Shown: positions 10,041 to 58,418, counted from the stretch's first letter. The stretch: 64,000 nucleotides of DNA from Nannocystis bainbridge (GCF_028368995.1 NZ_JAQNDL010000001.1:224001-288000); one strand, 5' to 3'. The notes: generated by a model not told the origin, from the letters alone. Made by a program: numbers and translations.

Positions 10041-12236
10041 ATGTCCGCCCGTCCGTCGCTGTTCGTCTGCACCGCCCTGCTCGCGGCCCTGCTCGCGCCT
10101 CCGGCCTCCGCCAGCACTGCCACGACGGCGACGCGCGGTTCCGCACAACCGGCCGCGAAGGCCTCGCCGAGCCCACAGCGGCCGGCGCAGGCCCGGCCAG
10201 CGACGACGACCGCGACCCCGGCCAGGCCGGCCGCGGCGGCGTCGGCTGGCCGTCAGGACATGGTGAAAAAGCCAGGTGACCCGCCGACCGCGGCGCATGT
10301 GCGATCGGGCACGGCGGCGCCGGCGAACGGGACGACGAAGCCACGGGCCGATGCGGTCGACGGACGCGGACCGGCGACCAGCAAGGGCACCCGCACGAGC
10401 ACGGGCGCGGCGGGCCAGCGCGCCACGAGCACCGGACCGGCGACCCAGCGCGACGCGAGCACCGGACCGGCGAGCAAGCAGACCGCCGCGACCGCCAGCC
10501 GCGACGCCGGCCAGCGCACCGCGAGCGGCGGAACTGCGGGCAAGCAGGCCGTCATGACCGACAGCCGCGACCCGGGCCAGCGCACCACGAGCGCCGCGAA
10601 CAACCGCGCCGGCGTGATCGACGGCCGCGACGCGGCGGCGCTGCGCGAGCTGTACCGTCGCAAGCCAGTCCGCGGGGATCGGCAGGCCGAGACCCGCACG
10701 GCGGCGCGTCCGGCCCAGGGCGAGACCGCGATCCGCGGGGCGGCGCCGAGCGATCGGGCGGCCGAGACGACGGCTGCCCGCCCGGCGCGGGGCGAGCTCC
10801 ACGGCGCGACGAGCGAGGTGGAGCGCAAGAAGATCGACGCGAGCGCGCCCGGTCGACCGACCCCGGCCGTGGTCACGCGCGAGCCGATCTCCCCGGCGCC
10901 AGCGCCGGAGCCCGAGTCGGTGGTGGCCGCGAAGGCTGACTCTTCGGACATGGTCCAAAAGACCGGTTCGAAGAAGTCGCGGCGCAAGGCCGCCCAGGCC
11001 GAGGACGAGCTGCTGGCAGAAGCGTCCGGTCCGCGGCCGACGGCGGGCAGCAGCTGCGCGGCCGGCCTCGGCGCCGCGCCGGCGCTGCAGTTCGACCGCA
11101 CGCGGGCGTCGCTGCGCGAGTTCTCGTGGGCCGACATGGCCTACTTCTTCGAGACCGCGGCCGACGAGGCGGAGCCCCAGTCGCGCCAGGTCAGCGGCGC
11201 GGGCGTGCTGGCGACCGACGAGGCGATCCGGCGCTCGGGCCTGCCGCGGCGGCCGCTCGAGGCGGTGGCCCAGGCGCAGGCGGTCGACCTGCTGACCGAG
11301 CGCGAGCTGGTGCGCATCGACAAGGCGCTCGCCGGGGCCAGCCCGGCCGCGCTGGGGACGCTGCTGCGCGCCGACTCGCCGACCCTGCGCGCGCACGTGT
11401 GGACGTGGCTGGCGACCACGCCGGCCGGCGCGTGCGCGCTGGTCAAGCTCGACGGCCGCGAGGTCGAGGCGGCCATCCACGACCGCAGCGTGGCGGTCGA
11501 GCACGGCGAAGATCTGGTGTTCCGCCCGCTCGGCGACTACGCGCTGGCGGCTCGCTCGCGCCTGGCCGCGGCCGACCCACAGGCCTACGATCAGCTGCTG
11601 CGGACGCTGGCGGTCGACGCGGGGCTCGACCCGCGGGTGCGCGCGACGGTGGCCGGGCTGCGGGTGCGACGGGGCCACGCCGACTCGATCGAGGCCGGCC
11701 TGCGCGACCCGGTGGCGGCGATCCGCGGGGCGACCGCGGCCGCGGCGATCGACCGCGACCGCCCGCGCTACGAGGGCCGGGTGCTCGACCACGCGGCCGA
11801 CGATCCGGCCGATCTGGTGACCGAGCTGATCGTCGGCGAGCTGCTCGGCGGACCCGACGGCAAGCCGCAGGGCGAGCTCGCGCAGCGCCGCGACGAGCGG
11901 GTGATGGCGGCGCTGGCCCGCTGGAAGGGCCGCGGCGATCCGATGTCGCCCCTGCCCGTGCCGTCGCAGCCGCTGCGGTTCCAGGCGCCCAACAAGAAGA
12001 TGGAGTCCGCGCCCGCCCCCGCCCCGGCGCCGATGATCGCGGCGACGCCGGTCGAGCCCGCGGTGGTGCCCGAGGCGCCCGCGCCCGCGCAGGCCAGGCC
12101 CGCCGCCGAAGAGTCGATCGAGGCCCCGCGCCCGCTGGCGCACACGCCGACCCGCCGCGAGCCCGAGCCGGCGGCGAGCGGCCCGCAGCTGCCGAGCGTG
12201 CTCGACGACCCGACCGGGACGTCGCTGCGGCCCTGA
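10041..12236 (+). CDS. Secreted hypothetical protein: low-complexity repeat N-terminus, HEAT-like helical region, Pro-rich tail
   Basis: Signal peptide LFVCTALLAALLAPPASA; A/T/G/Q-rich repeats; HEAT-like segments GLRDPVAAIRGATAAA and AADDPADLV. Confidence 0.6.
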   Translation: MSARPSLFVCTALLAALLAPPASASTATTATRGSAQPAAKASPSPQRPAQARPATTTATPARPAAAASAGRQDMVKKPGDPPTAAHVRSGTAAPANGTTKPRADAVDGRGPATSKGTRTSTGAAGQRATSTGPATQRDASTGPASKQTAATASRDAGQRTASGGTAGKQAVMTDSRDPGQRTTSAANNRAGVIDGRDAAALRELYRRKPVRGDRQAETRTAARPAQGETAIRGAAPSDRAAETTAARPARGELHGATSEVERKKIDASAPGRPTPAVVTREPISPAPAPEPESVVAAKADSSDMVQKTGSKKSRRKAAQAEDELLAEASGPRPTAGSSCAAGLGAAPALQFDRTRASLREFSWADMAYFFETAADEAEPQSRQVSGAGVLATDEAIRRSGLPRRPLEAVAQAQAVDLLTERELVRIDKALAGASPAALGTLLRADSPTLRAHVWTWLATTPAGACALVKLDGREVEAAIHDRSVAVEHGEDLVFRPLGDYALAARSRLAAADPQAYDQLLRTLAVDAGLDPRVRATVAGLRVRRGHADSIEAGLRDPVAAIRGATAAAAIDRDRPRYEGRVLDHAADDPADLVTELIVGELLGGPDGKPQGELAQRRDERVMAALARWKGRGDPMSPLPVPSQPLRFQAPNKKMESAPAPAPAPMIAATPVEPAVVPEAPAPAQARPAAEESIEAPRPLAHTPTRREPEPAASGPQLPSVLDDPTGTSLRP

Positions 12237-12237
12237 G

Positions 12238-12326
12238 TGTCCCCTGAGACATGTCGAAAAGGCCATGCTCTTCGGAGCATGGCCTTTTTTACATGTCGTA
12301 TCGGACATGCCCCCGAAGACATGTCC
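12238..12326. repeat. Phased array of six 14-bp TG-N10-CA units between convergent genes
   Basis: CATG at 12250, 12264, 12278, 12292, 12306, 12320 (exact 14-bp period). Confidence 0.92.
12257..12290. terminator. Probable bidirectional intrinsic terminator embedded in the 14-bp array
   Basis: AAAAGGCCATGCTC-TTCG-GAGCATGGCCTTTTTT: perfect stem, C(UUCG)G loop, A and T tracts on either side, between convergent stops at 12236 and 12338. Confidence 0.8.
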
Positions 12327-12337
12327 CTCTCGCCGCC

Positions 12338-30415: not shown

Positions 30416-32719
30416 GTGGTCGCCGCGCTCGTCGTGCTCCCGAGCGCCGCCGCGCGTGCGGATCGTGAGGCGCCCCCTGCCCCCGGCGGCGAGCCGAACG
30501 TCGACGCCGCGCAGCGTTCGCCGGGCCCTGCGAGCGCCCGGACGGACGGCCGCGAAACGAAGCCCACGTCGGCGCCGCGCCCGGTGAGTCCCCCGAATAC
30601 CGCGGCGCGCCGCGGCCCCTACCACACCGTCGTGCGCGCCGACCAGGGCGACGGCCTCGACGCCCAGCGGCGCCTCGACGCCCAGCGGCCCGGATTTCAC
30701 ACCGCGATCGAGCTGGCCGCCGAGCGCGGCGCGCGGTCGGCCGACGGCCTGCCGGAGATCCTCGCCCGCAGCGCCGGCGCCACCGTGCGCAGCCTCGGCG
30801 GCCTCGGGCAATTCTCGGCGCTGTCGCTGCGCGGCTCGTCGGCCCAGCAGGTGGCGCTGTTCCTCGACGGCGTCCCGCTGTCGGCCGGCAGCGGCGGCGT
30901 CGTCAACCTCGCCGATCTGCCGCTCGACGCCCTCGGCGCGGTCACCATCTACCGCGGATTGGTTCCGATCGCCTACGGCGGGGCCGCGCTCGGCGGCGCC
31001 GTCGACCTCGGCTCCGACCTGCGCTGCGACCCGGTCCCGCGCCTGCGCGCGGTCGTCGGCGCCGGCTCGTTCGCCGCCCGCGAGGCCCGCGTCGGCGCCA
31101 GCGTCCCGCTCGTCGCCAGGTCCAAAGGACATGCCCCAAAGAACATGTCCTCGGCGCCACGTCATTGCCTCGCCGTGCGCGCCGGCTACACCGGGGCGGC
31201 CGGCGATTTCCGCTTTCACAACATCGGCGAGACCCCGCTCGACCCGAGCGACGACCGCCTCGATCGCCGCGTCAACAACAGCTACGACCGCGCCCTGACC
31301 CAGGTGGCCGTGCACGGCCGCGTCGGCGACCTGCGCTACAGCGTGCAGGAGCTGGTGTTCGTCAAGGATCAGGGCGTGCCCAGCATGGCCACCGGGGCCC
31401 AGGCCCGGCGCACCCGGCTCGGCACGGTGTCGGCGCGCACGGTCGCGCGGGTCCGGCGGACCTGGTCCCGAGGACATGTCGAGGGCGTGTTCGGCGTGCT
31501 CGCCGAGCAGGTCCGCTTCCGCGATCCGCTCGGCGAGATCGGCCTCGCGCGCGACGACCAGCGCACGCGCGCGCTCGACCTCTACGCCTCGCCGCGCGGC
31601 CGCGTCGGCGTGTGGCGCGGCGCCGAGATCGGCCTCGTCGCCGACGTGCGCGGCGAGCTGATCCGCGTCGACGAGCGCGCCGCCTCGACCGGCCCGCTCG
31701 GCGCCACCGGCGACGCCGATCGCCGCCGCGTCGCCGGCGGCCTCGGGCTCGAGCTCGACCAGCGCCTGCTCGCCGGCCGCCTGCAGCTCGCGCCCGCGGT
31801 GCGGCTCGACGTCCTCCGCAGCGCCTTCGCGGTGCCGCCCGGCCAGGGCGAGCAGAGCGACGAGGGCCGCGATCACACCAGCCTCGGCGTCTCGCCGCGG
31901 CTCGGCATGCGTCTGTCTCTTCGGCCAGGTCTCAGCCTGCGCGCCAGCGCCGGCCGCTACTTCCGCCCGCCGACCCTGGTCGAGCTGTTCGGCGATCGCG
32001 GCTACGCCGTCGGCAACGAGGGCCTGCGGCCCGAGCGCGGCACCGGCCTCGACGCCGGCCTGGTCGTCAGCACCGCGCCGGCGCGCACCAGCCTCTACGC
32101 CCACGCGGCCGGGTTCGTCACCTGGTCCGAGGATCTGATCGCGTGGACCCAGACCGGCCCGTACCTGCGGCCGACCAACCTCGATCGCGCCCGCGTCGCC
32201 GGCCTCGAGACCGCGGCCGCGCTGCGTCTCCTGGGCGGCGACCTCGAGCTGCGCGGCAACTACACCCTGCTGGCCACCCGCAACGGCAGCGCCGAGGCGT
32301 CGATGCACGGCCAGCCCCTGCCCGGCCGCCCGCGCCACGAGCTGTTCGTGCAGCTCGCCGCCGGCCACGCCTACGACCTGCGCGGCCGCGAGTTCTTGCC
32401 TCGCCTCGGCGTCACCGTCGAGCACGCCGCGCGCACCTTCCTCGATCCCAGCGGTCGCTTCGAGGTCCCGGCGCGCACCCTCGTCGGCGCCTTCCTCGAG
32501 CTGCACCTGCTCGCGCGGGTCCACCTCGCCCTCGAGGTCCGCAACGTGCTCGGCGCGCGCGTCGCTACCTGGCGGCCGCCGGTCGCCGGGAGCCCGGCGG
32601 TGACCGTCCCGCTCAGCGATTTCTTCTTCTTCCCCCTGCCCGGCACCAGCCTCTGGACCACCCTGCGCGTCGACCTTCAGCCGCCGCGCCGCCCGCGAAC
32701 CACCGAGAGACCTTCATGA
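30416..32719 (+). CDS. btuB: TonB-dependent cobalamin receptor (BtuB-like)
   Basis: Plug motifs SLRGSSAQQVALFLDGVPL and GAALGGAVDL; barrel motifs FRPPTLVELFG and GNEGLRPERG; directly downstream of the B12 riboswitch. Confidence 0.85.
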   Translation: MVAALVVLPSAAARADREAPPAPGGEPNVDAAQRSPGPASARTDGRETKPTSAPRPVSPPNTAARRGPYHTVVRADQGDGLDAQRRLDAQRPGFHTAIELAAERGARSADGLPEILARSAGATVRSLGGLGQFSALSLRGSSAQQVALFLDGVPLSAGSGGVVNLADLPLDALGAVTIYRGLVPIAYGGAALGGAVDLGSDLRCDPVPRLRAVVGAGSFAAREARVGASVPLVARSKGHAPKNMSSAPRHCLAVRAGYTGAAGDFRFHNIGETPLDPSDDRLDRRVNNSYDRALTQVAVHGRVGDLRYSVQELVFVKDQGVPSMATGAQARRTRLGTVSARTVARVRRTWSRGHVEGVFGVLAEQVRFRDPLGEIGLARDDQRTRALDLYASPRGRVGVWRGAEIGLVADVRGELIRVDERAASTGPLGATGDADRRRVAGGLGLELDQRLLAGRLQLAPAVRLDVLRSAFAVPPGQGEQSDEGRDHTSLGVSPRLGMRLSLRPGLSLRASAGRYFRPPTLVELFGDRGYAVGNEGLRPERGTGLDAGLVVSTAPARTSLYAHAAGFVTWSEDLIAWTQTGPYLRPTNLDRARVAGLETAAALRLLGGDLELRGNYTLLATRNGSAEASMHGQPLPGRPRHELFVQLAAGHAYDLRGREFLPRLGVTVEHAARTFLDPSGRFEVPARTLVGAFLELHLLARVHLALEVRNVLGARVATWRPPVAGSPAVTVPLSDFFFFPLPGTSLWTTLRVDLQPPRRPRTTERPS

Positions 32720-33954
32720 TCCGCCGCTTCGCCCTCCTCAGCACCGCCCTCGCCCTCGCCGCCTGCAACCCCTCCAGCGGCAGCACCGACACCGACACCG
32801 GCACCGGCACCGAGACCGACGGACCTGGCACGACGGACATGTCCCCCACGACAGGTGAGGCGCCGGTCGTGGTCGAGCTCGACGCCCCCTGCGACTTCGG
32901 TCCCGACGGCGCCACCGAGCTCGCGCTCGTGACCAACGACTTCGTCGCCCCCGCCGGGCTCGGCCGCGTCGACACCGGCGAGCGCCAGATCCTCGCCGAC
33001 CTCCTGCCGGCCACCACCGACACCGCCCTCGGCGCGACCGGCGAGTGGCTCGTCATGGTCCACCGCTTCGGCCACAACCGCATCGACGTGGTCGACCGCG
33101 GCGCATGGCTGCTGCGCGGCTCGGTCGACGTCACCCACAGCGCCGCCGACGACCCCAACCCGCAGGGCGTCACCTTCGCCGCCGACGGCCTCGCCTACGT
33201 GCCGCTGTTCGCCGCGCCGGCGGTCCAGATCTACGACTTCTCGGTCGCCGAGTCGTCGGCCTGGCTGCAGGGCGAGATCGATCTCTCGCCGTTCGCCGAC
33301 GCTGACGGCAGCCCCGAGGCCGGACTCGCGCTCGCGTGCGGCGGCGTGCTGTTCGTCGGCATCCAGCGCCTCGTCGACTTCGCGCCCGTCGACAGCAGCT
33401 ACCTCGTCGCCGTCGACCTCGCGGCGCGGGCCCTGCTCGACCTCGACGTCGCCACGGCAGGCACCCAGGGCATCGAGCTGCTCGGCGCCTACCCCAAGCA
33501 GGTCCGCCGCGATCCGGCCGACGCCGCCGGCCACACCGCGCTGGTCCTGACCTCCGGCGTCGAGCGCGTCGACCTGTCCCGAGGGACATCCGAGTGGGCG
33601 GTCGCCCCCGAAGTCCTGGCGGAGGCCAGCATCGACGGCTTCGACCCGCAGGCGTTCGTCGTCGCCCCCGACGGCGCCTCGATCTTCCTCACTGCCACCG
33701 ACGGTGACTATCCGGCCGCGGCCGTGTTCCAGGTCGGCCTCGATGGCGGCGAGCCGACCGCCCCGGTCAAGGTCGTCGCTGGCCTCAACTCCGGCGACAG
33801 GATGCTCGAGAGAATCGGCGGCACGCTGTGGATCGGCGACGCCAACGGGGCGGCGCCGCGGCTCCGCCTCTACGACGTCGCCGCCGCCGTCGAGGTCGAG
33901 GTCGACGGCCTGACGACCAAGGCCGCCCCGTGGACCTTCATCCCCCTGCCCTGA
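32716..33954 (+). CDS. Lipoprotein with predicted beta-propeller (YncE/BtuG-like), copy 1
   Basis: ATG 32716 overlaps the btuB stop; lipobox ALAAC; NPQGV, AYVPLF and IDLSPFADADGSPEA segments. Confidence 0.7.
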   Translation: MIRRFALLSTALALAACNPSSGSTDTDTGTGTETDGPGTTDMSPTTGEAPVVVELDAPCDFGPDGATELALVTNDFVAPAGLGRVDTGERQILADLLPATTDTALGATGEWLVMVHRFGHNRIDVVDRGAWLLRGSVDVTHSAADDPNPQGVTFAADGLAYVPLFAAPAVQIYDFSVAESSAWLQGEIDLSPFADADGSPEAGLALACGGVLFVGIQRLVDFAPVDSSYLVAVDLAARALLDLDVATAGTQGIELLGAYPKQVRRDPADAAGHTALVLTSGVERVDLSRGTSEWAVAPEVLAEASIDGFDPQAFVVAPDGASIFLTATDGDYPAAAVFQVGLDGGEPTAPVKVVAGLNSGDRMLERIGGTLWIGDANGAAPRLRLYDVAAAVEVEVDGLTTKAAPWTFIPLP

Positions 33955-33967
33955 GAGACAGGTCCTC

Positions 33968-35188
33968 ATGAACATGTCCGTTCGCACCTGTGCTCTCGTG
34001 GTGGTCGGTCTCGGCTGCGAATTTGCCGGCCCACTGCCCGGCGACGGCCCGCCGGCCACCGACGCGCCGACGCCGATCGCCGGCTGGCCGCGCGAGGTCG
34101 GCGCCTGCGTCGGCGACTCGGCCGCGCCGACGCGGCTGCTCGTGACCACCACCGACTTCGCCACCGGCGGGGTCAGCACGGTCGCGCTGGCGGGCTTCAC
34201 CGCGCTGGCCGACGTCGCGCTCGGCAGCACCGACGCCAAGCCGTTCTTCTTCGACGGCACCGCCTATGTGCTGCACCGCTACGGCCTCGACGCCCTCGAC
34301 GTGCTCGACCCCGACGACGGCTTCCGCCTGCTGGCGCAGCGGGCGATCGTCGCCGGGGACCCCGAGGTCGTCAGCGCCAACCCGCACGCGCTGGTGGTCG
34401 GTCCCGACGGCCGCGGCTACGTCTCGCTGTTCGGCGCGCCCGAGGTGCAGGTGTGGGACCTGGCCGATGGGACAGCTCCGAGGTTGACCGGGCGCATCGA
34501 CCTCTCGCCGCTGGCCGACGCCGATGGCAACCCCGAGGCCTCCGAGGTCCTGCTGTGCGGCGGCGTGCTGTTCCTCGCCGTCGACCGCGTCGACCAGGAC
34601 GCCGGCCTGGTGCCGAACGAGCCGCGGGCCCGCCTCGCGGCCGTCGACCTCGCCAGCGGCGCCGTGCACGACCTCGACCCCGCGACGCCCGGCGCCCAGG
34701 GCCTGGCGCTGCTCGGCGGGTGGGCCCGGCAATTTCGCCTCGACCCTGCCGACCCGACCGGACGCACCGCGCTGGTCCTCACCACCGGCCTCGAGCGCGT
34801 CGACCTGTCCTCGGGGACATCCGCGTGGGCGGTCGCCGATGCCCGCCTGCAGGCCGCCGGCCTGACCGACTACCGCCTGCCGCAGGCGTTCGCGCTCGGT
34901 CCGGGCGGGACCGACGTCTATCTGGCCGCCTACCGCGTCGACTTCAGCGAGGTCGCGCTGTTCCGCGCCGCGCTGGACCGCGACGAGCCGCTCGTCGAGC
35001 TCGCGTCCGGCATGCAGTCGGTCGAGCAGAGCCTCGAGGTCATCGGCGACATCCTCTACTTCGGCGACCGCGCCCACGGGGCCTCGGGCCTGCGCGCGTG
35101 GGACCTGCGCCAGAGCCCGCCCGCGCCGCTGCCGGGCGCCCCGCTCGCGCTCGGCCTCGCCCCCTACGCCGCCGTGGCGATCCCCTGA
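33968..35188 (+). CDS. Lipoprotein with predicted beta-propeller (YncE/BtuG-like), copy 2
   Basis: Lipobox VGLGC; paralogous to the previous gene (NPHAL, GYVSLFGAPEVQVWD, IDLSPLADADGNPEA, TALVLTTGLERVDLS). Confidence 0.7.
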   Translation: MNMSVRTCALVVVGLGCEFAGPLPGDGPPATDAPTPIAGWPREVGACVGDSAAPTRLLVTTTDFATGGVSTVALAGFTALADVALGSTDAKPFFFDGTAYVLHRYGLDALDVLDPDDGFRLLAQRAIVAGDPEVVSANPHALVVGPDGRGYVSLFGAPEVQVWDLADGTAPRLTGRIDLSPLADADGNPEASEVLLCGGVLFLAVDRVDQDAGLVPNEPRARLAAVDLASGAVHDLDPATPGAQGLALLGGWARQFRLDPADPTGRTALVLTTGLERVDLSSGTSAWAVADARLQAAGLTDYRLPQAFALGPGGTDVYLAAYRVDFSEVALFRAALDRDEPLVELASGMQSVEQSLEVIGDILYFGDRAHGASGLRAWDLRQSPPAPLPGAPLALGLAPYAAVAIP

Positions 35189-35294
35189 GCTCATGCCCGC
35201 CCACGATCCGCCCCCGTCCTCGCTCGCGCCCGGCGCCCCCGAACCGGGCGAAAATGGGTCGAAATGCCGCGCGCGCGGCCGTAGACTGCCCGCG

Positions 35295-36170
35295 GTGCTG
35301 CGCGGCCTGCCTGTCCTTTTCGCCCTGTCTGCATGTACAGGTGCGCCCGCGCCCGCGCCCGAGACCGGCGATGCGCCCGCGCACCGGATCGTCTCGCAGA
35401 CGATCCTCTCCGACGAGGTGCTGTGGGCGCTCGGTCCCGCGGCCCAGGCCCGCGTCGTCGGCGTCAGCGCGCTCGCCGACGACCCCCGCTACTCCGGCGT
35501 CGCCGGCGTATGGCCGCCCGCGACCCCGCGCCGCGCCCTCACCTCCGAGGGCCTGCTCGCGCTCGCCCCCGACCTGGCCGTGATCGCCAGCTTCACCTCG
35601 CCCGAAGTGCGCGAGCTGCTGACGAGCCACGGCGTGCGCCTGCTCGAGTTCACCCGCTTCACCGGCTTCGCCGACTACCGCTCCCACGTGCGCCAACTCG
35701 CCGCCGCGGTCGAGGACCCGGCCGCGGGCGAGCGCCTGATCGCCGACCTCGACGGCCGCCTGGCCCGCCTGGCCGCGCGTCGGCCGGCGATCCGGCTGGC
35801 GGCGGTCAGCTGGGGCGACGGCCACGCCGCGGCCGCCGGCACCAGCTTCGACGACGTCGCCGAGGCAGCTGGCCTTTCGAACATGGCTAAAGAGAAAGGT
35901 CTCGAAGGACATGTCCCTGTGGCCCTGGAGCTGATGGTCTCGTGGGACCCGCCGGTGATCGTCACCGGCTGCCCGGCGCCCGAGCCCGACGACCCGGCCT
36001 GCCGCGCCGCCGAGGCGGCCGTAGCCGCGCTGCCGGGCGTGCGCGCGACCGCGGCGGCGCGGGGCGGGCGGATCTTCGCGGTGCCCGCACGCGCGCTCGC
36101 CAGCACCGGCGAGGGCATGGCGCGCGCCGCCGAGATCTTGCAAGACCGCCTGCGCGCGGAGCCGCCGTGA
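35295..36170 (+). CDS. btuF: Cobalamin ABC transporter substrate-binding lipoprotein
   Basis: Lipobox ALSAC; RIVSQTILSDEVL, EGLLALAPDLAV, AGLSNMA; start placed at GTG 35295. Confidence 0.8.
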   Translation: MLRGLPVLFALSACTGAPAPAPETGDAPAHRIVSQTILSDEVLWALGPAAQARVVGVSALADDPRYSGVAGVWPPATPRRALTSEGLLALAPDLAVIASFTSPEVRELLTSHGVRLLEFTRFTGFADYRSHVRQLAAAVEDPAAGERLIADLDGRLARLAARRPAIRLAAVSWGDGHAAAAGTSFDDVAEAAGLSNMAKEKGLEGHVPVALELMVSWDPPVIVTGCPAPEPDDPACRAAEAAVAALPGVRATAAARGGRIFAVPARALASTGEGMARAAEILQDRLRAEPP

Positions 36171-37168
36171 ACCGCACCACCTGGCTGGCCGCGGCCGCGA
36201 TCCCGCTCGCGCTGCTGCTGTCTCTCGGGACAGGTCCGGGCGAGATCGGCCTCGCCGAGGCGCTCGCCACCATCGGTCGCCGGCTCGCCGGCGACGAGCT
36301 CGATCTGCGCGGCGCGATCGTGTGGGATCTGCGGCTGCCGCGGGCGCTGCTCGCCGGCCTCGTCGGCGCCGCCCTGGCGGCCGCGGGCGCGCTGTGCCAG
36401 GGCCTGTTCCGCAACCCGATGGCCGATCCGGGGGTGCTCGGCGTCAGCTCCGGGGCCGCGCTGTTCGCCGTCGTCGGCCTGCTGTTGGGCTTCGACCGCG
36501 CCGGGTTGTGGGCGATCCCGGTCGTCGCGGCGATCGGCGCGGCCGCGGCCATGGGGCTCCTGCTCGCGGCCGCCGGGCGACAGGCCAGCCTCGCCGTCCT
36601 GCTGCTCGCCGGCGTCGCGCTCGGGGCCCTGTGCTCGGCGCTGATCACCGTGTGTCAGGCGCTCGCCTCGCATCAGTGGGACTTCGGGCTCAAGGTCATC
36701 TACTGGCTGATGGGCAGCTTCGAAGGCCGCAGTTGGCCCCACCTGTCGTGGGCCGTGCCCCCCTGCGGGCTCGGGCTCGCGCTGGCACTATGGCTGCGTC
36801 GCGACCTCGACGCGCTCCACCTCGGCAGCGACGCCGCGGCCTCGCTCGGTGTCGACCTCGCGCGCCTGCGCCTGCTCGTGGTCGTCGCTGTCGGCCTCCT
36901 CGTCGGCGCCGCGACCGCGCTGACCGGCGTACTGGCGTTCGTCGGGCTCGTCGCCCCGCACGTCGCTCGCATGTCCTCGGGGCCAGGTCATCGACGTCTC
37001 GTCCCGCTCGCCGCGCTCGTCGGCGCGAGCGCGACCATCCTCGTCGACGCCGTCGCTCGCTCGGCCAGCGGGGTCGTGATCCCTCCCGGAGTGATCACCA
37101 GCCTGGTCGGCGCGCCTTTCTTTCTGTGGCTGCTCCGGCGTCGCGGCCTGCGCGGACTCGCTGGCTGA
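36167..37168 (+). CDS. btuC: FecCD/BtuC family ABC permease
   Basis: LRLPRALLA, QGLFRNPMADPGVLGVSSGA, AASLGV, FVGLVAPH, GVITSLVGAPFFLWLL. Confidence 0.9.
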   Translation: MNRTTWLAAAAIPLALLLSLGTGPGEIGLAEALATIGRRLAGDELDLRGAIVWDLRLPRALLAGLVGAALAAAGALCQGLFRNPMADPGVLGVSSGAALFAVVGLLLGFDRAGLWAIPVVAAIGAAAAMGLLLAAAGRQASLAVLLLAGVALGALCSALITVCQALASHQWDFGLKVIYWLMGSFEGRSWPHLSWAVPPCGLGLALALWLRRDLDALHLGSDAAASLGVDLARLRLLVVVAVGLLVGAATALTGVLAFVGLVAPHVARMSSGPGHRRLVPLAALVGASATILVDAVARSASGVVIPPGVITSLVGAPFFLWLLRRRGLRGLAG

Positions 37169-37662
37169 GCGCGACGCTTGCACATGCATCGTCGTCACGT
37201 GTCCGCGCGTCGTTCGGACGAACGCGGTCAACTGACCGCACCGCTGCACGCGCACGCCGATCCGTGTGACTTTGTCTGAGCCAGAGCATGCGTTCCTGCG
37301 CTGCGCATCAGCGGCGTGGTGACAGCGCGGCATTACGCGTGCGGCCCATAGACCACGGCGCTGATGTGCGCGACGTCGAAGTCGCTCCACATACAACATC
37401 TTGGGTTCACGCGCGGAGCGCTGTCCACAACTAGTGCCCTGCAGCAAACTCGAAGCGCGGACACGTGCGAACGACTGTCACATTCTCACGCCGGTCGCTC
37501 GTGCACATGCACGCGAGTGACGCGGCTGCACGCTCGCGCGCGGGCAGAATCCGGGACGTCCGCACTGGACGGACCACCGCTTTCGGTTTCTTCTTGTCGG
37601 CCTGATGAGCCCCGGCGCGGAAGACCTCAGCGAGCTCAGCGGAGACGAAGGAAGGTAGCGGA

Positions 37663-38724
37663 ATGAGATTGGTGCACCTGACAGCTCTGGCCTGCGCCGT
37701 CGCCGTCGTCACTGACGGCTTCGACGACGGCGCCAGCGCGGAAGCGGCCCACGATGTCCGGTTCGACGACCGCTACGACCTCGACGGCGACCTGAACACA
37801 GCCGGCCGGACCGGCCCGAGCAGCCTGGACGAAGTTCTGCGGGCGCCCGTTCGCGCCCTCGCGCCCGTGACACCTGCGCCCGTCGAGCCCGCGCTCGATG
37901 AGCCCGCGCAGGTCGCCGCCGACCGCGCACAGGTCGAGCAGTTCCTCCCCCACCAGTGCGTGCACGGCGTCGACGAGCAGCGCCCGCGGCTGACGCGGAA
38001 CGAGCAAAAACGGACCTACGACGTGCTCGCGCACGTCGTCAAGCGGCTCAAGGCCAGCGACGATTTCCTCAAGCTGCTCCAGCTGGTCGCCTCGCGCGAA
38101 TCGAGCCTGCAGCAAGGGCTCGTGCACCGCCTGTCACCTGACCTCGAGGCCAGCCAACAGGCGTGGCGCAAGACCGCCAAGCTCTACGAGGGCAACCCGC
38201 ACCACGCCGAGCACGAGCACTGGCAGACCTACGGCCTGTTCGGCATGAACTCCAACTACTTCACCCAGGTGTGGGACAACCAGGCCGACCCCCGCGTCCT
38301 GTGCGACGCGATCGTCGACATCCTCGTCTATCGCCGCGCCGTCGCCCGCGTCATCCGCAAGGCGGGCACCGCCATCGAGTGCACCGACGCCGCCGGCCGG
38401 ACCTATCAGCACACCACCCGCGCCACCTGGGAGAGCGTGCACCGGGCCGTCAGCGGCGGGAAGATGTGCCCGAGCAAGAGCGAGAACGTCGCCGCGATCA
38501 TGGGCAAGTACTTCCGCGGACGCGCGGCCAAGTTCGGGCTCGACCCTGACAAGCCCGTCACCCTCAAGATGTTGGGCGTGGAGCCGGCCAAGGGCCTCGA
38601 CGGCGCCGCCTGGGCCGACCAGGAGGCGATCGTCATGGGCCTGTGGGCCGAGCTCGAGGCCGAGTGGGCCGAGCACCCGCCGGACGAGCCCGAGCCGGTG
38701 AAGATCGCCCGCACCGGCGTCTGA
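37663..38724 (+). CDS. Secreted hypothetical protein with lysozyme/lytic-transglycosylase-like motifs
   Basis: Signal-like N-terminus; VASRESS (catalytic-Glu-like) followed by YGLFGM; purine-rich RBS-like sequence upstream. Confidence 0.6.
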   Translation: MRLVHLTALACAVAVVTDGFDDGASAEAAHDVRFDDRYDLDGDLNTAGRTGPSSLDEVLRAPVRALAPVTPAPVEPALDEPAQVAADRAQVEQFLPHQCVHGVDEQRPRLTRNEQKRTYDVLAHVVKRLKASDDFLKLLQLVASRESSLQQGLVHRLSPDLEASQQAWRKTAKLYEGNPHHAEHEHWQTYGLFGMNSNYFTQVWDNQADPRVLCDAIVDILVYRRAVARVIRKAGTAIECTDAAGRTYQHTTRATWESVHRAVSGGKMCPSKSENVAAIMGKYFRGRAAKFGLDPDKPVTLKMLGVEPAKGLDGAAWADQEAIVMGLWAELEAEWAEHPPDEPEPVKIARTGV

Positions 38725-42301: not shown

Positions 42302-42376
42302 TGTCCGCCGAGACATGTCCAATCGGGCATGCCTCTGCGGACATGACTTTTAAAAAGAAGCATGTCCCCGGGGACA
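42302..42376. repeat. Array of 14-bp palindromic units (three phased plus one perfect)
   Basis: CATG at 42300, 42314, 42328, 42342; then TGTCC-CCGG-GGACA at 42363-42376 after a TTTTAAAAA spacer. Confidence 0.88.
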
Positions 42377-42420: not shown

Positions 42421-42612
42421 TCCTCGCTAGCCTCCGAGCGCCCGCCTCGCCTTCGCGCCCTGTTCCTCGCTGGCCTCCGAGCGCCCGCCTCGCCTTCGCG
42501 CCCTGTGCCTCGCTGGCCTCCGAGCGCCCGCCTCGCCCTCGCGCCCTGTTCCTCGCTGACCCGCCTCGCCTTCGTGCCCTGTTCCTCGCTGGCTTCCGTG
42601 CGACCGCCTCGC
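42421..42612. repeat. 43-bp pyrimidine-rich tandem repeat, about 4.5 copies
   Basis: Unit TCCTCGCTGGCCTCCGAGCGCCCGCCTCGCCTTCGCGCCCTGT starting at 42421, 42464, 42507, 42550 (10-bp deletion) and 42583 (degenerate). Confidence 0.9.
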
Positions 42613-51757: not shown

Positions 51758-54787
<3,030 letters not shown>

Positions 54788-54791
54788 CGCC

Positions 54792-54880
54792 TGTCCTCCA
54801 GGGCATGTCCGCGAGGACCTGCGCGAAAGCGCATGTCTTTTCGAACATGCACGAAAGGGCATGCCCTCGCGGACATGCCC
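54792..54880. repeat. Phased array of six 14-bp units between convergent genes
   Basis: C(A/C)TG cores at 54790, 54804, 54818, 54832, 54846, 54860, 54874. Confidence 0.92.
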
Positions 54881-54904
54881 GTCACGCCCGCGTCCGCGAC
54901 CCGC

Positions 54905-55688: not shown

Positions 55689-58418
55689 CTACTCGACCTC
55701 GATCGTCTCCTCTGCCAGGGCCAGCTCGCTGGGATGCTCCGACAGCCACAGGCTCGGCGGGAGCCGGCGCAGCACCCACACCATCGCCGACTCCCCCAGG
55801 CCGAGCGGCGACGGCAGCTTGAGCCCGAAGAGCGCGCTGATCTGGTCGCCGAGGGTCGGCGGCGCCGGCACGTGGCGCACCTCGCCCTCACCCGGCTTCA
55901 GCGCGGCCCGCTCGCGGGCGTAGGCCACGGCCTCGCGCAGCCCGCCGTACGCGTCGACGAGGCCGAGCTCGCGCGCCCGCACCCCGCTCCACACCCGTCC
56001 GCGGGCCAGCGCGTCGACCTGCTCCGGCGTCAGCTTGCGCGCCTTCGCCACCCGCGCCGTGAACTCCCGGTAGCTGGCGTCGACGCCGGCCTGGGCCGCC
56101 GCCCGCTCGTCCTCGCTGTACGGCTTGAACCACGTGTAGAGCCCGCCGCGCGCGCCGTAGTCGACCGACTCGACCTTGACCCCGAACTTCTCGAGCACGC
56201 CCGACACGTCGACCTTCGGGCGGAACACGCCGATGCTGCCGGTCTTGGTGGTCGCGTCGGCGAAGATGTAGCTGCCCGCGGTCGCCACGTAGTAGCCGCC
56301 GGACGCCGCCACGTCGCCGAACGAGATCACGACCGGCTTGATCTTCGCCACCCGGTCGAGCGCGCGCGCCATGTCGTCCGACGCCGCCACCGACCCGCCC
56401 GGGCTGTCGATGCGCACCACCACCGCCTTGACCCGCCGGTCCTCGCGCAGGCGATCGATCGCCCGCACCAGCGTGTCGCCGCCGGCCAGCACGCTGCCGA
56501 CGATCGGGACCGTCAGGCTCGCGCCGTCGCTGATGGTGCCCTCGACGTGGACCACCGCGATCGCCGGACCTGGCCCGAAGGACATGTCATGCACCGGCAG
56601 CGCGCTCGGGGCCCGCAGCGTCACCTTGCGCGCCAGCCACTTCTCCAGCTCGCCCTCGAGCTCGTCGGCGTAGCCGATCGCGTCGATCATCCCGGCTCGC
56701 AGCGCCTGCTCGGCCGTGTGCGGCGCCGTGTCGATCCACTGCACCACCTGCTCCGGCGTGGTCTTGCGGTTCTGCGCCACCGTCCGCACCACGTGGTTCC
56801 AGATGTCGGTCAGCAGCAGCCGCCGCTGCGCGTCCGACTCCGGCGTCGGCCCCGTGCGCTCCCACTGCTCGGGCCGCGACTTGTACTCGTACGCCCGCAC
56901 GAACTCGGCCTTGGCCCCGAGGCGCCCGAGCAGCTCCGCGTAGTAGAACACCTCCGAGCGCATGCCGACGATCGACAGCCGCGCCCCCGGGTGCAGGATC
57001 ACCCGGTCGGCCGCGGTCGCCAGGAAGTAATCCTTCAGCCCCGCCCCGCGCAGGTACACCGCTACCTTGCCGCCGCGCGCCCGCACCCGCAGCATCGCCT
57101 CGCGGATCTCCTCGATCTCGCCCCACCCGTTGCCCGAGCCGTCGACCTCGAGCGCCACCACGGCGCGGCCCTGTCGCTGCTCCGACGCCTTGTCGAGCGC
57201 GTCGACCAGCCTGCCCGCCCCGCGGTCGCCGGCGTAGCGATCGACGTCGAAGCGCAGCGCCTCGAGCGGCGCCTGGGCCAGCGTCGCATAGCGCTCGGCC
57301 GACGCCCGCAGCTTGAACGCCCCGCCCTGCGCCCCGAAGCCGTCGGCCCCGTTCGGCCCGAGCACCGGCGCTGCCGCCACGCCGACGTGGGTAAAGTCGA
57401 GCTCGAGCCCGACCATCGCCCGCAGCGCGTCGGTGGCCTCGCGCTGGCCGACGGTGTTGACGTAGTAGCGCTCGACCTCGCCGAACAGCCGCCACGCCGC
57501 GCCGCCGGCCGCGATCCGCCCGCGCGGCGCCAGCACCGGCGTATGGAACCGCGGGTCGGCGTTCGGCAGCGGCACCACCCGCGCCCCGACCCCGAGCTCG
57601 AGCGCGCGCGAGCCCTTGATCGGCCGCACCGCCACCTCGGCGTCGAGCTCGAACGGCTGGCGGCGATCGAGGATGCCCGGCCGCGGCGGCTCGGGGATTC
57701 GCAGGTCCTGGCCCGCGCGCGGCGTGTTGATCGCCCGCGCCACCAACCCGAGCGCCACGTAGCGGCTCGGGCGATAGGCCAGCGACAGCTCGGCCTGGTG
57801 CAGCCGCTGCGCGTAGAGGTTGCGCTCCGACCACGTGCGCGCGTAGCTGATGCCGAGCGACAGCCCCGGGGCCCAGCGCATCAGCGGCACCGCGGCTGCC
57901 AGCGTCAGCTTGTTGTAGTCGAGGTCGGCCGGGTACCAGTCGTCGCGGTACCACTCGACGGAGTCCTGGCTCGGCAGGCGCCCGCAGCCGAACGGGCACA
58001 GCCGCTGATAACCTGCCCCGAGGGACAGGAAGGTGTCGGCGAGCTTCTGCCCGAACAGCTTGAGCTGCAGCGGCACCGCCACGAACACCCCGAAGCCGCC
58101 GCCGCGCCGCTGCGACGTCGCCCGCGTGTAGTTGCCCGCCAGCACCCCGCTGAACCCGCGCAGGAACCCCATCGCCGCCGGGTTGACCGCCACCGCCGCC
58201 GCGTCGATCTCGCCGGCCACGTGGCTCTGCGGCATGTCGATGTCGCGCAGCAGTGAGCGGCCCTCGCCCGCCCCGAACGGCGCCGGCTCCGGCGGGGCCG
58301 CGTGGGCCGACGTCGCCAGCGCGAAGGCCCCCAGCGCGCACACGCCCACGGCCCGGCGACGCCGCGACGTCGCGCCCGCAGGACCACCGTAAACCACCGA
58401 GCGAGCACGAGCGGCCAT
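55689..58418 (-). CDS. sppA: Signal peptide peptidase SppA (S49) with N-terminal predicted beta-barrel domain, copy 2
   Basis: DYFLATAA, EYKSRPE, RIDSPGGS, VAASGGYY, TGSIGV, GRVWSG; start ATG 58418 overlaps the mutS2 stop. Confidence 0.85.
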   Translation of the reverse strand: MAARARSVVYGGPAGATSRRRRAVGVCALGAFALATSAHAAPPEPAPFGAGEGRSLLRDIDMPQSHVAGEIDAAAVAVNPAAMGFLRGFSGVLAGNYTRATSQRRGGGFGVFVAVPLQLKLFGQKLADTFLSLGAGYQRLCPFGCGRLPSQDSVEWYRDDWYPADLDYNKLTLAAAVPLMRWAPGLSLGISYARTWSERNLYAQRLHQAELSLAYRPSRYVALGLVARAINTPRAGQDLRIPEPPRPGILDRRQPFELDAEVAVRPIKGSRALELGVGARVVPLPNADPRFHTPVLAPRGRIAAGGAAWRLFGEVERYYVNTVGQREATDALRAMVGLELDFTHVGVAAAPVLGPNGADGFGAQGGAFKLRASAERYATLAQAPLEALRFDVDRYAGDRGAGRLVDALDKASEQRQGRAVVALEVDGSGNGWGEIEEIREAMLRVRARGGKVAVYLRGAGLKDYFLATAADRVILHPGARLSIVGMRSEVFYYAELLGRLGAKAEFVRAYEYKSRPEQWERTGPTPESDAQRRLLLTDIWNHVVRTVAQNRKTTPEQVVQWIDTAPHTAEQALRAGMIDAIGYADELEGELEKWLARKVTLRAPSALPVHDMSFGPGPAIAVVHVEGTISDGASLTVPIVGSVLAGGDTLVRAIDRLREDRRVKAVVVRIDSPGGSVAASDDMARALDRVAKIKPVVISFGDVAASGGYYVATAGSYIFADATTKTGSIGVFRPKVDVSGVLEKFGVKVESVDYGARGGLYTWFKPYSEDERAAAQAGVDASYREFTARVAKARKLTPEQVDALARGRVWSGVRARELGLVDAYGGLREAVAYARERAALKPGEGEVRHVPAPPTLGDQISALFGLKLPSPLGLGESAMVWVLRRLPPSLWLSEHPSELALAEETIEVE

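Follow-up and report, generated by a model that had tools for sequence, protein, structure and literature searches.

Within a 64,000-nucleotide (nt) stretch of the genome of Nannocystis bainbridge (GCF_028368995.1, NZ_JAQNDL010000001.1:224001-288000; hereafter the window), a substrate-binding-protein gene (35193-36170, + strand) carries an array of five units, each made up of a 10-mer and a 4-nt spacer, that is overprinted on its protein code (35865-35934; unit starts at 35865, 35879, 35893, 35907 and 35921). The DNA of this array is near the best phased match to the palindrome GGACATGTCC that the encoded peptide allows. We consider it very probable that the site is an in-place intragenic copy of a genus-specific family of phased palindromes, which was written by substitution and not inserted. 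A reading made beforehand from the sequence alone (the sequence-only reading) had claimed that the DNA signal is overprinted on the protein code and does not represent a mobile insertion, and this claim is upheld by gap-free orthologues, by synonyms that fit the motif and by a tuning that is confined to the genus.

The perfect palindromic core of the array, GGACATGTCC (35907-35916), is read as GGA CAT GTC C (Gly-His-Val-Pro). The second unit, GAACATGGCT (35879-35888), takes its CATG from AAC ATG (Asn-Met) and matches GGACATGTCC at seven of ten positions with the CATG intact, so that one perfect and one good unit are accompanied by three units that are weak but in phase (35865, 35893 and 35921). 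With a first scoring matrix, which was conditioned on CATG, the five units scored -12.2, +11.8, -7.8, +16.8 and -10.3, respectively, all above the 95th percentile of positions in coding sequences (CDS; 95th percentile -14, median -33), and the next phased units beyond either edge of the array were at background (-42 and -32). The unit starts given earlier (35870, 35884, 35898 and 35912) and the accompanying list of 19 codons proved exact and in the frame of the open reading frame (ORF) 35193-36170; the description as 'four phased units' is valid in the sense of a signal specific to one phase, with just two of the units being strong individually.

Eleven of the 19 listed codons end in A or T, as had been stated, and the flanking gene indeed follows a norm of G/C-ending codons: the GC content at third codon positions (GC3) is 0.92 in the rest of the gene versus 0.50 in the 22-codon segment, and the overall GC content is 0.53-0.58 in 60-nt windows over 35840-35939 versus 0.73-0.88 on either side. 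Many of the codons used have a very low share among their synonyms in the genome (CTT 0.010, GCA 0.015, GGA 0.020, GCT 0.023, CCT 0.031, AAA 0.037, GGT 0.051, GAA 0.065 and CAT 0.085). The codon choice was evaluated with a second matrix, derived from 1831 intergenic 'middle' units that are flanked by two CATGs 28 nt apart. With this matrix the 70 nt score 28.5 in phase and between -44 and -117 in any of the 13 other phases, where the ceiling for any synonymous spelling of the peptide is 34.4. None of 200,000 recodings with random synonyms of the same peptide, drawn from the genome codon usage, reached 28.5 (mean -21.7, standard deviation 6.8, maximum 11.6). The motif-best synonym is used in 19 of the 22 degenerate codons, ten of these 19 being rare codons, and wherever two A/T-ending synonyms were available the motif-preferred one was used every time; given such specificity for the motif, neither rare codons in general nor mere AT-richness can explain the segment. 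Codons ending in A/T also cluster over the signal peptide and lipobox of the gene (35303-35348); the units there are weakly motif-like (5.7, 2.7 and 0.3 at 35307, 35321 and 35335) and out of phase with the main array.

The history of the site was followed in orthologues from 20 genomes, eight of the same genus and 12 of other genera of the family. Across AGLSNMAKEKGLEGHVPVALE all 20 orthologues align free of gaps, with residues that conform to the pattern of the family, so the earlier statement that the segment is not an insertion agrees with the alignment. The synonymous divergence towards the motif that the same reading had predicted was found in every same-genus orthologue (8/8, z = 4.7-7.4) and in none from outside the genus (0/12, z between -2.0 and 1.3). 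The peptide GHVP is encoded already outside the genus; in the orthologue L009, for example, G-L-V-G-H-V-P is spelled with the common codons GGG CTC GTC GGT CAC GTC CCC. Two distant congeners (60-64% amino acid identity) have GGT CTC TCG GGA CAT GTC CCT GTG, and the crown species gained GCT, CTT, AAA, AAA and GAA upstream. The second CATG was completed by a change from Leu (CTG) to Met (ATG) that is seen in G000 and G001 only, the other six congeners and most outgroups having CTG or CTC (Leu) at this position. The outer units were added later than the core unit, in the crown species. The proposal that the array was written through rare synonymous codons holds for most of the changes, but amino acids also moved towards the motif, as the Leu to Met change in G000 and G001 illustrates.

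All eight same-genus orthologues share the core codons GGA CAT GTC/GTG CC(T/A): GGA CAT is retained throughout and the full 10-mer in seven of the eight (G003 has GTG). In comparison with the orthologues L007 and L008 of the two distant congeners, the A/T-ending codons of L001 were retained in 4/6 and 4/7 cases within the segment and in 1/6 and 0/4 cases elsewhere in the gene. Copying and pasting from a donor array was considered and rejected: each 20-mer of the segment is unique in the genome, which gives no hint of a pasted donor, and the longest word that recurs, at six other places, is an 18-mer. The comparisons show, we conclude, that substitutions shaped this stretch as far as the protein permitted, under a DNA-level force that recognizes the consensus GGACATGTCC at a 14-nt phase, and that the same force was active over the history of the genus.

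The family to which the array belongs pervades the genome (11.05 Mb, 71.5% GC, 90.5% complete), for which we used gene calls from our own rough caller (8164 genes, 84% coding). Its unit is the palindrome GGACATGTCC followed by a weakly AT-rich 4-nt spacer. Pairs of CATG are strongly concentrated at spacings of 14 nt (3736), 28 nt (2073) and 42 nt (1586), with about 70-480 pairs at other spacings (72 at 13 nt, 262 at 15 nt). Chaining over the whole genome yielded 2074 arrays of at least two phased CATGs, the longest of which has 16. Arrays with at least three CATGs occupy 434 of 1461 convergent gaps, 281 of 4411 tandem gaps and 32 of 1485 divergent gaps, and in tandem gaps their median distance from the preceding stop is 25 nt; this distribution characterizes the arrays as elements of gene 3' ends. 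The array in the binding-protein gene lies within the coding sequence, some 250 nt ahead of the stop, where the norm of the family is a place just 3' of genes; like about 170 other CDS loci it is an atypical, intragenic member. A regular spacing of the arrays along the chromosome was not seen (coefficient of variation 1.34).

Two perfect adjacent units were recovered from nine of 11 same-genus genomes versus none of 30 other relatives. A search for the two-unit pattern in one representative genome per prokaryote species returned 78 stretches, 75 of which are titled Nannocystis, Nannocystaceae or Myxococcales metagenome-assembled genome (MAG). Going by these searches, the repeat family was found only in the genus of the window. 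G000 shows array signal at the corresponding position for 36 of the 42 arrays of other species whose flanks are orthologous, a comparison of close relatives made without a matched control, which becomes 33 of 39 when three intervals longer than 1 kb are left out and in which several loci share one G000 site. In the accessible text of the literature on Nannocystis or myxobacterial repeats no description of a phased GGACATGTCC family was found, and the matches to GGACATGTCC itself were eukaryotic (p53, primers) among the matches listed.

Overprinting is not peculiar to the binding-protein gene. When counted at least 45 nt from gene ends, 285 perfect 10-mers are intragenic genome-wide, of which 103 are read as GGA CAT GTC C, 161 as xxG GAC ATG TCC and 21 as xGG ACA TGT CC; ten synonymous resamplings/permutations gave 0-2, 17-36 and 0-2 in the same frames, so that the excess over the codon-aware expectation is about 5- to 100-fold, depending on the frame. 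The CDS loci that score at least as well as the binding-protein site number 166, 182 and 119 for three, four and five units, versus 0-3, 8-15 and 9-11 in codon-permuted genes. The copies are spread evenly along genes without a 3'-end bias (decile counts 5, 20, 22, 27, 34, 22, 26, 30, 8 and 3), both gene ends having been excluded by design. The comparison of GC3 inside and outside intragenic copies, which had been put forward as a check, was made on the 197 of 251 intragenic sites with well-supported flanks: GC3 is 0.74-0.90 within ten codons on either side versus 0.97 further out. The dips track the motif, for 72 of the 144 strong GC3 dips in well-scored genes lie on phased arrays versus 16 of 4120 random windows.

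Series of orthologues were inspected for two chosen and four random sites, of which one random site (L154) was set aside because it had no usable outgroup. Together with the binding-protein site this leaves six informative sites (the binding-protein site, two chosen and three randomly drawn), and all six show in-place substitution without insertion or deletion. In an endonuclease-III-like gene GGC GAG GTG CCG CGC AGC TTC is followed by an intermediate in G010 (GGA CAG GTC CCG AAC GAC ATG) and by GGA CAT GTC CCG AAG GAC ATG in the crown species, which amounts to about ten substitutions within 21 nt and changes the protein from E to Q to H. In a Clp-like ATPase, GGC CGC GAC GCG GCG CTC GGC GCG CGG CCC CTG CGT CAC became GGA AAG GAC ATG TCC CTT GGG GCA CGT CCC TTG CGA CAT, with a change from A-A to M-S beside the GARPL motif.

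The effect extends to the composition of the proteome. The tripeptide DMS occurs 422 times versus 88 for the reversed SMD, and GHV is spelled GGACATGTC in 148 of 679 cases. The ratios of observed to expected counts, based on composition, are 2.73 for DMS, 1.71 for TCP and 1.46 for GHV, versus 0.57, 0.80 and 1.15, respectively, for the reversed tripeptides. The excess of DMS and TCP is a proteome-wide footprint of the repeat. As a separate observation, the match of the gene at G000:C1:3814921-3816240 to its orthologue L167 in one congener (G007:C2:7870609-7871704) falls into two frames that meet exactly at the intragenic array (query residues 74-285 and 283-439); a frameshift or a misassembly of the repeat may be the cause.

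An RNA hairpin at the binding-protein site was rejected: the fold has z = -0.26 and 76 of 200 shuffled sequences fold as well. Adjacent units in arrays show almost no covariation (complementarity 0.48 versus 0.43 and 0.63 versus 0.59 expected from the consensus) and the mutual information between paired positions is at most 0.02. The lack of covariation and the lack of a fold at the site favour a factor that reads the consensus over a hairpin. The arrays were likewise dismissed as intrinsic terminators of the classical kind, because a T-tract does not follow them: among 690 tandem-gap arrays, TTTT is found within 14 nt downstream in 2.5% versus 3.5% upstream.

In the mechanism that we propose, point substitutions, mostly synonymous and a few at tolerant residues, wrote the array onto a conserved protein segment. 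The agent would be a trans-acting, sequence-specific reader of duplex DNA, to which we are led because the units converge on the consensus independently and because the intragenic copy lacks a fold. In the simplest and most likely picture, this reader would be a dimeric palindrome-binding protein that is lined up every 14 bp and stacks cooperatively. It would raise the chance of fixation of those substitutions that improve a phased unit, and the function of the protein would filter which of the improvements of the motif persist.

Four other explanations of the site were weighed against this one. The site might be an element of the local operon (a promoter, an operator, a processing or attenuation site, or a rare-codon pause) that resembles the repeat by chance, for which the genus-wide conservation of the rare codons, the position about 250 nt 5' of the translationally coupled permease gene and the copies in several genes of the cluster could be adduced. 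Neither a pause nor a plain AT-rich element, however, predicts the motif-fitting synonym in 19 of 22 codons. Moreover, scores as high are reached by some 170 other CDS loci, in unrelated genes, intragenic copies are evenly spread along genes, no RNA structure was detected, and the tuning is absent from the out-of-genus orthologues of the same gene; we therefore regard such an element as improbable, and an operon-specific role of the site as unlikely. That the array grew on a template in cis, with quasi-palindrome correction or template switching copying the perfect unit onto its neighbours without any reader in trans, we judge to be quite improbable as well. The array apparently grew outward from an old perfect unit and the changes in the endonuclease-III-like gene are clustered, as such copying would have it, but the complementarity between neighbours that it predicts beyond the consensus is barely seen, the units in the binding-protein gene do not pair, and intermediates exist in G010 (endonuclease-III-like gene) and G004 (Clp-like ATPase).

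An in-frame insertion of a small mobile palindrome, of the type of the Rickettsia palindromic elements or of repetitive extragenic palindromic (REP) sequences and miniature inverted-repeat transposable elements (MITE), would account for a family dispersed in about 2000 copies, for peptides like GHVP-x-DMS that recur in unrelated proteins and for the gaps of at least four in 19 of 77 paralogue alignments at other sites. It is contradicted by the equal length of the 20 orthologues, by the presence of GHVP outside the genus, by the uniqueness in the genome of the 20-mers of the segment and by the lack of matches to the Y1 transposase domain PF01797 in the 90.5% complete genome (0 matches, where six of 14 control genomes were positive), and is exceedingly improbable. 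Almost no weight is left for the view that rare codons clustered by chance or through a compositional accident, such as recombination with a donor of lower GC content: AT-richer residues (N, M, K, E and K) do occur here and weak units make up three of the five, but the recodings failed to reach the score in 200,000 trials, the signal is phase-specific, and a genus-wide conservation combined with continuity of the protein with the outgroups does not fit a foreign patch.

Several points weigh against our explanation. Strong units make up just two of the five. The relatives are few and, since the same-genus species share ancestry, eight out of eight does not stand for eight independent events, and the retention in two distant species rests on four rare codons. 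There is turnover, as seen from the GTG of G003 in the core unit and from the CCT of G000 versus the CAT of its relatives at another site, which makes it probable that no single copy is indispensable. The gene calls are home-made, so that the counts for the whole genome are approximations, and the matrices and thresholds are likewise our own. Paralogue alignments at 77 sites were gap-free in 33 cases, with gaps of 1-3 in 25 and of at least four in 19; insertions may therefore have occurred at some other sites, although these alignments are noisy (25-50% identity) and the orthologue series were used in their place as the insertion test. Finally, the reader is a candidate that we infer from patterns in the DNA.

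What the reader would do can be narrowed down to two main possibilities. The fixation bias could reflect selection for binding, with a role at the level of the chromosome or at transcript ends, and we tentatively entertain this as a serious possibility; the preference for convergent gene ends and the array signal kept at orthologous G000 places (36/42) speak for it. The bias could also stem from a selfish or molecular drive, similar to uptake sequences or to repair, a possibility that is plausible yet doubtful and in whose favour it counts that copies are evenly spread over genes and turn over, that they exact a price in rare codons, that conserved residues were replaced and that tripeptide frequencies shifted. 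What is left of the probability is shared by mutation templated in cis, a local role and explanations of some other kind. We would give an even chance to the wider view of a genus-wide 'phased palindrome' system, in which arrays at about 30% of convergent ends and in-place rewriting of coding sequence, with rare codons and even replaced residues in conserved enzymes, would result from molecular drive or a chromosome-level binding code and in which the binding-protein site would be among the oldest intragenic footprints.

Several known systems resemble the one described here in part. The cyanobacterial palindrome HIP1 (GCGATCGC) is, according to two reports, over-represented, also within ORFs, conserved at orthologous positions and without a gene-level function, and it is debated there whether selection or biased repair maintains it (PMC5861425, PMC4390886). 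The Nannocystis units are similarly over-represented in ORFs, and the core unit of the binding-protein site is conserved across the genus, whereas the units differ in the longer motif (10 bp with a CATG centre, in 14-nt-phased arrays), in the location of most copies at gene 3' ends (434/1461 convergent versus 32/1485 divergent gaps) and in the host, a myxobacterium of 71.5% GC in which the motif forces rare codons. The uptake signal sequences (USS) of the Pasteurellaceae and the DNA uptake sequences (DUS) of Neisseria are described as lineage-specific, present in hundreds to thousands of copies and spread by in-place substitution in coding sequence that is filtered by the tolerance of the protein, with the encoded tripeptides about doubled and with preferred codons accompanying the sequences in particular frames (PMC2817400). 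Measured by that description, the Nannocystis system shares the enrichment of tripeptides (DMS, TCP and GHV) but, unlike USS and DUS, is overprinted against the codon bias by means of rare codons. To our knowledge, uptake sequences are not palindromes in 14-nt-phased arrays.

The REP sequences and bacterial interspersed mosaic elements (BIME) of enterobacteria are dispersed palindromic units that form 3' intergenic arrays and avoid promoter regions, and the Nannocystis arrays are likewise palindromic, 3' intergenic and sparse in promoter regions. In contrast to REP/BIME with their REP-associated tyrosine transposase (RAYT), no Y1 transposase was found in the 90.5% complete Nannocystis genome and the arrays have neither hairpin covariation nor a T-tract; moreover, we know of no REP sequences that were written into ORFs by substitution. 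The Rickettsia palindromic elements are in-frame insertions that add residues to otherwise conserved proteins. They have in common with the Nannocystis copies that a repeat-derived peptide segment lies within a conserved protein, whereas in Nannocystis the protein keeps its length in all 20 orthologues, as do the proteins at five other informative sites. Compared with HIP1, uptake sequences and REP/BIME, the Nannocystis system is distinct in that its palindrome of 10 bp keeps a strict 14-bp phase and is at home at gene 3' ends.

The host gene of the array encodes a protein of 325 amino acids with a lipoprotein-type signal peptide, which is periplasmic and matches the Pfam domain PF01497 (Peripla_BP_2; E 3.2e-16, 59.9 bits versus a cut-off of 27.5). 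The GTG at 35295 is a possible alternative start and the one that the rough gene caller chose. The protein is a putative member of the BtuF/FhuD class of Peripla_BP_2 proteins. The name btuF that it had been given is unsupported: in Pfam only Peripla_BP_2 matches, the NCBIfam equivalog search returned a single match (TIGR04281, 61 bits, cut-off 325), and the label is a guess that is not established, because no BtuF equivalog model passes its cut-off. The gene is followed by a FecCD-family permease gene (36167-37168, + strand; PF01032, E 2.6e-83) whose start overlaps the stop of the binding-protein gene by 4 nt and whose top NCBIfam matches are BtuC models, all under their cut-offs. The same cluster contains a TonB-dependent receptor gene (30416-32719, + strand; PF00593 and PF07715), with a two-unit intragenic copy at 31127-31154 (unit scores 17.5 and 15.3).

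Between the receptor and binding-protein genes lie two paralogous neighbours (32716-33954 and 33998-35188), neither of which has a match in Pfam and which share a 248-nt stretch that is 74% identical; the 43-nt gap between them holds a two-unit array (33956-33983, unit scores 10.4 and 17.4). About 500 nt of lower GC content without a convincing ORF (37169-37671) lie 3' of the permease gene, and Pfam has no match for the gene beyond them (37672-38724); an ATP-binding cassette (ABC) ATPase gene therefore does not adjoin the binding-protein/permease pair.

The window contains more intragenic copies, at 32835, 48822, 53501-53528, 56566-56593, 2312 and 10946 (unit scores 12-17.5), as well as intergenic arrays. 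A typical one, with six phased units between convergent gene ends, is found at 12247-12330 (RNA fold z = -7.8); others have six phased units directly 3' of a stop codon (54801-54884), lie directly 3' of a stop codon (42311-42371) or have five phased units (1896-1965). Two tandem repeats of another kind were seen: four head-to-tail 43-nt copies (42422-42594), 94-96% identical except for the last copy, which is offset and 74% identical, lie between an intergenic phased array, which they directly follow, and a gene on the minus strand, and three tandem units of about 60-66 nt with 62-79% identity (10445-10636) are situated inside a gene called at 10299-12236.

The site clearly shows that a DNA-level signal can override a strong codon bias, and occasionally the conservation of a protein, throughout a genus. 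For annotation it matters that the arrays account for about half of the strong GC3 dips in genes of the genome, since without this explanation such dips might be mistaken for inserted or horizontally acquired segments or for frameshifts. Living species preserve a series that leads from no motif through one unit to an array, and the 14-bp phase provides a handle for finding the putative reader. The Nannocystis repeats thereby offer a new system for the old question of whether selection or drive maintains hyper-abundant motifs such as HIP1 and the uptake sequences and, if the wider view of a 'phased palindrome' system is true, the force involved would be strong enough to shift the tripeptide frequencies of an entire proteome.

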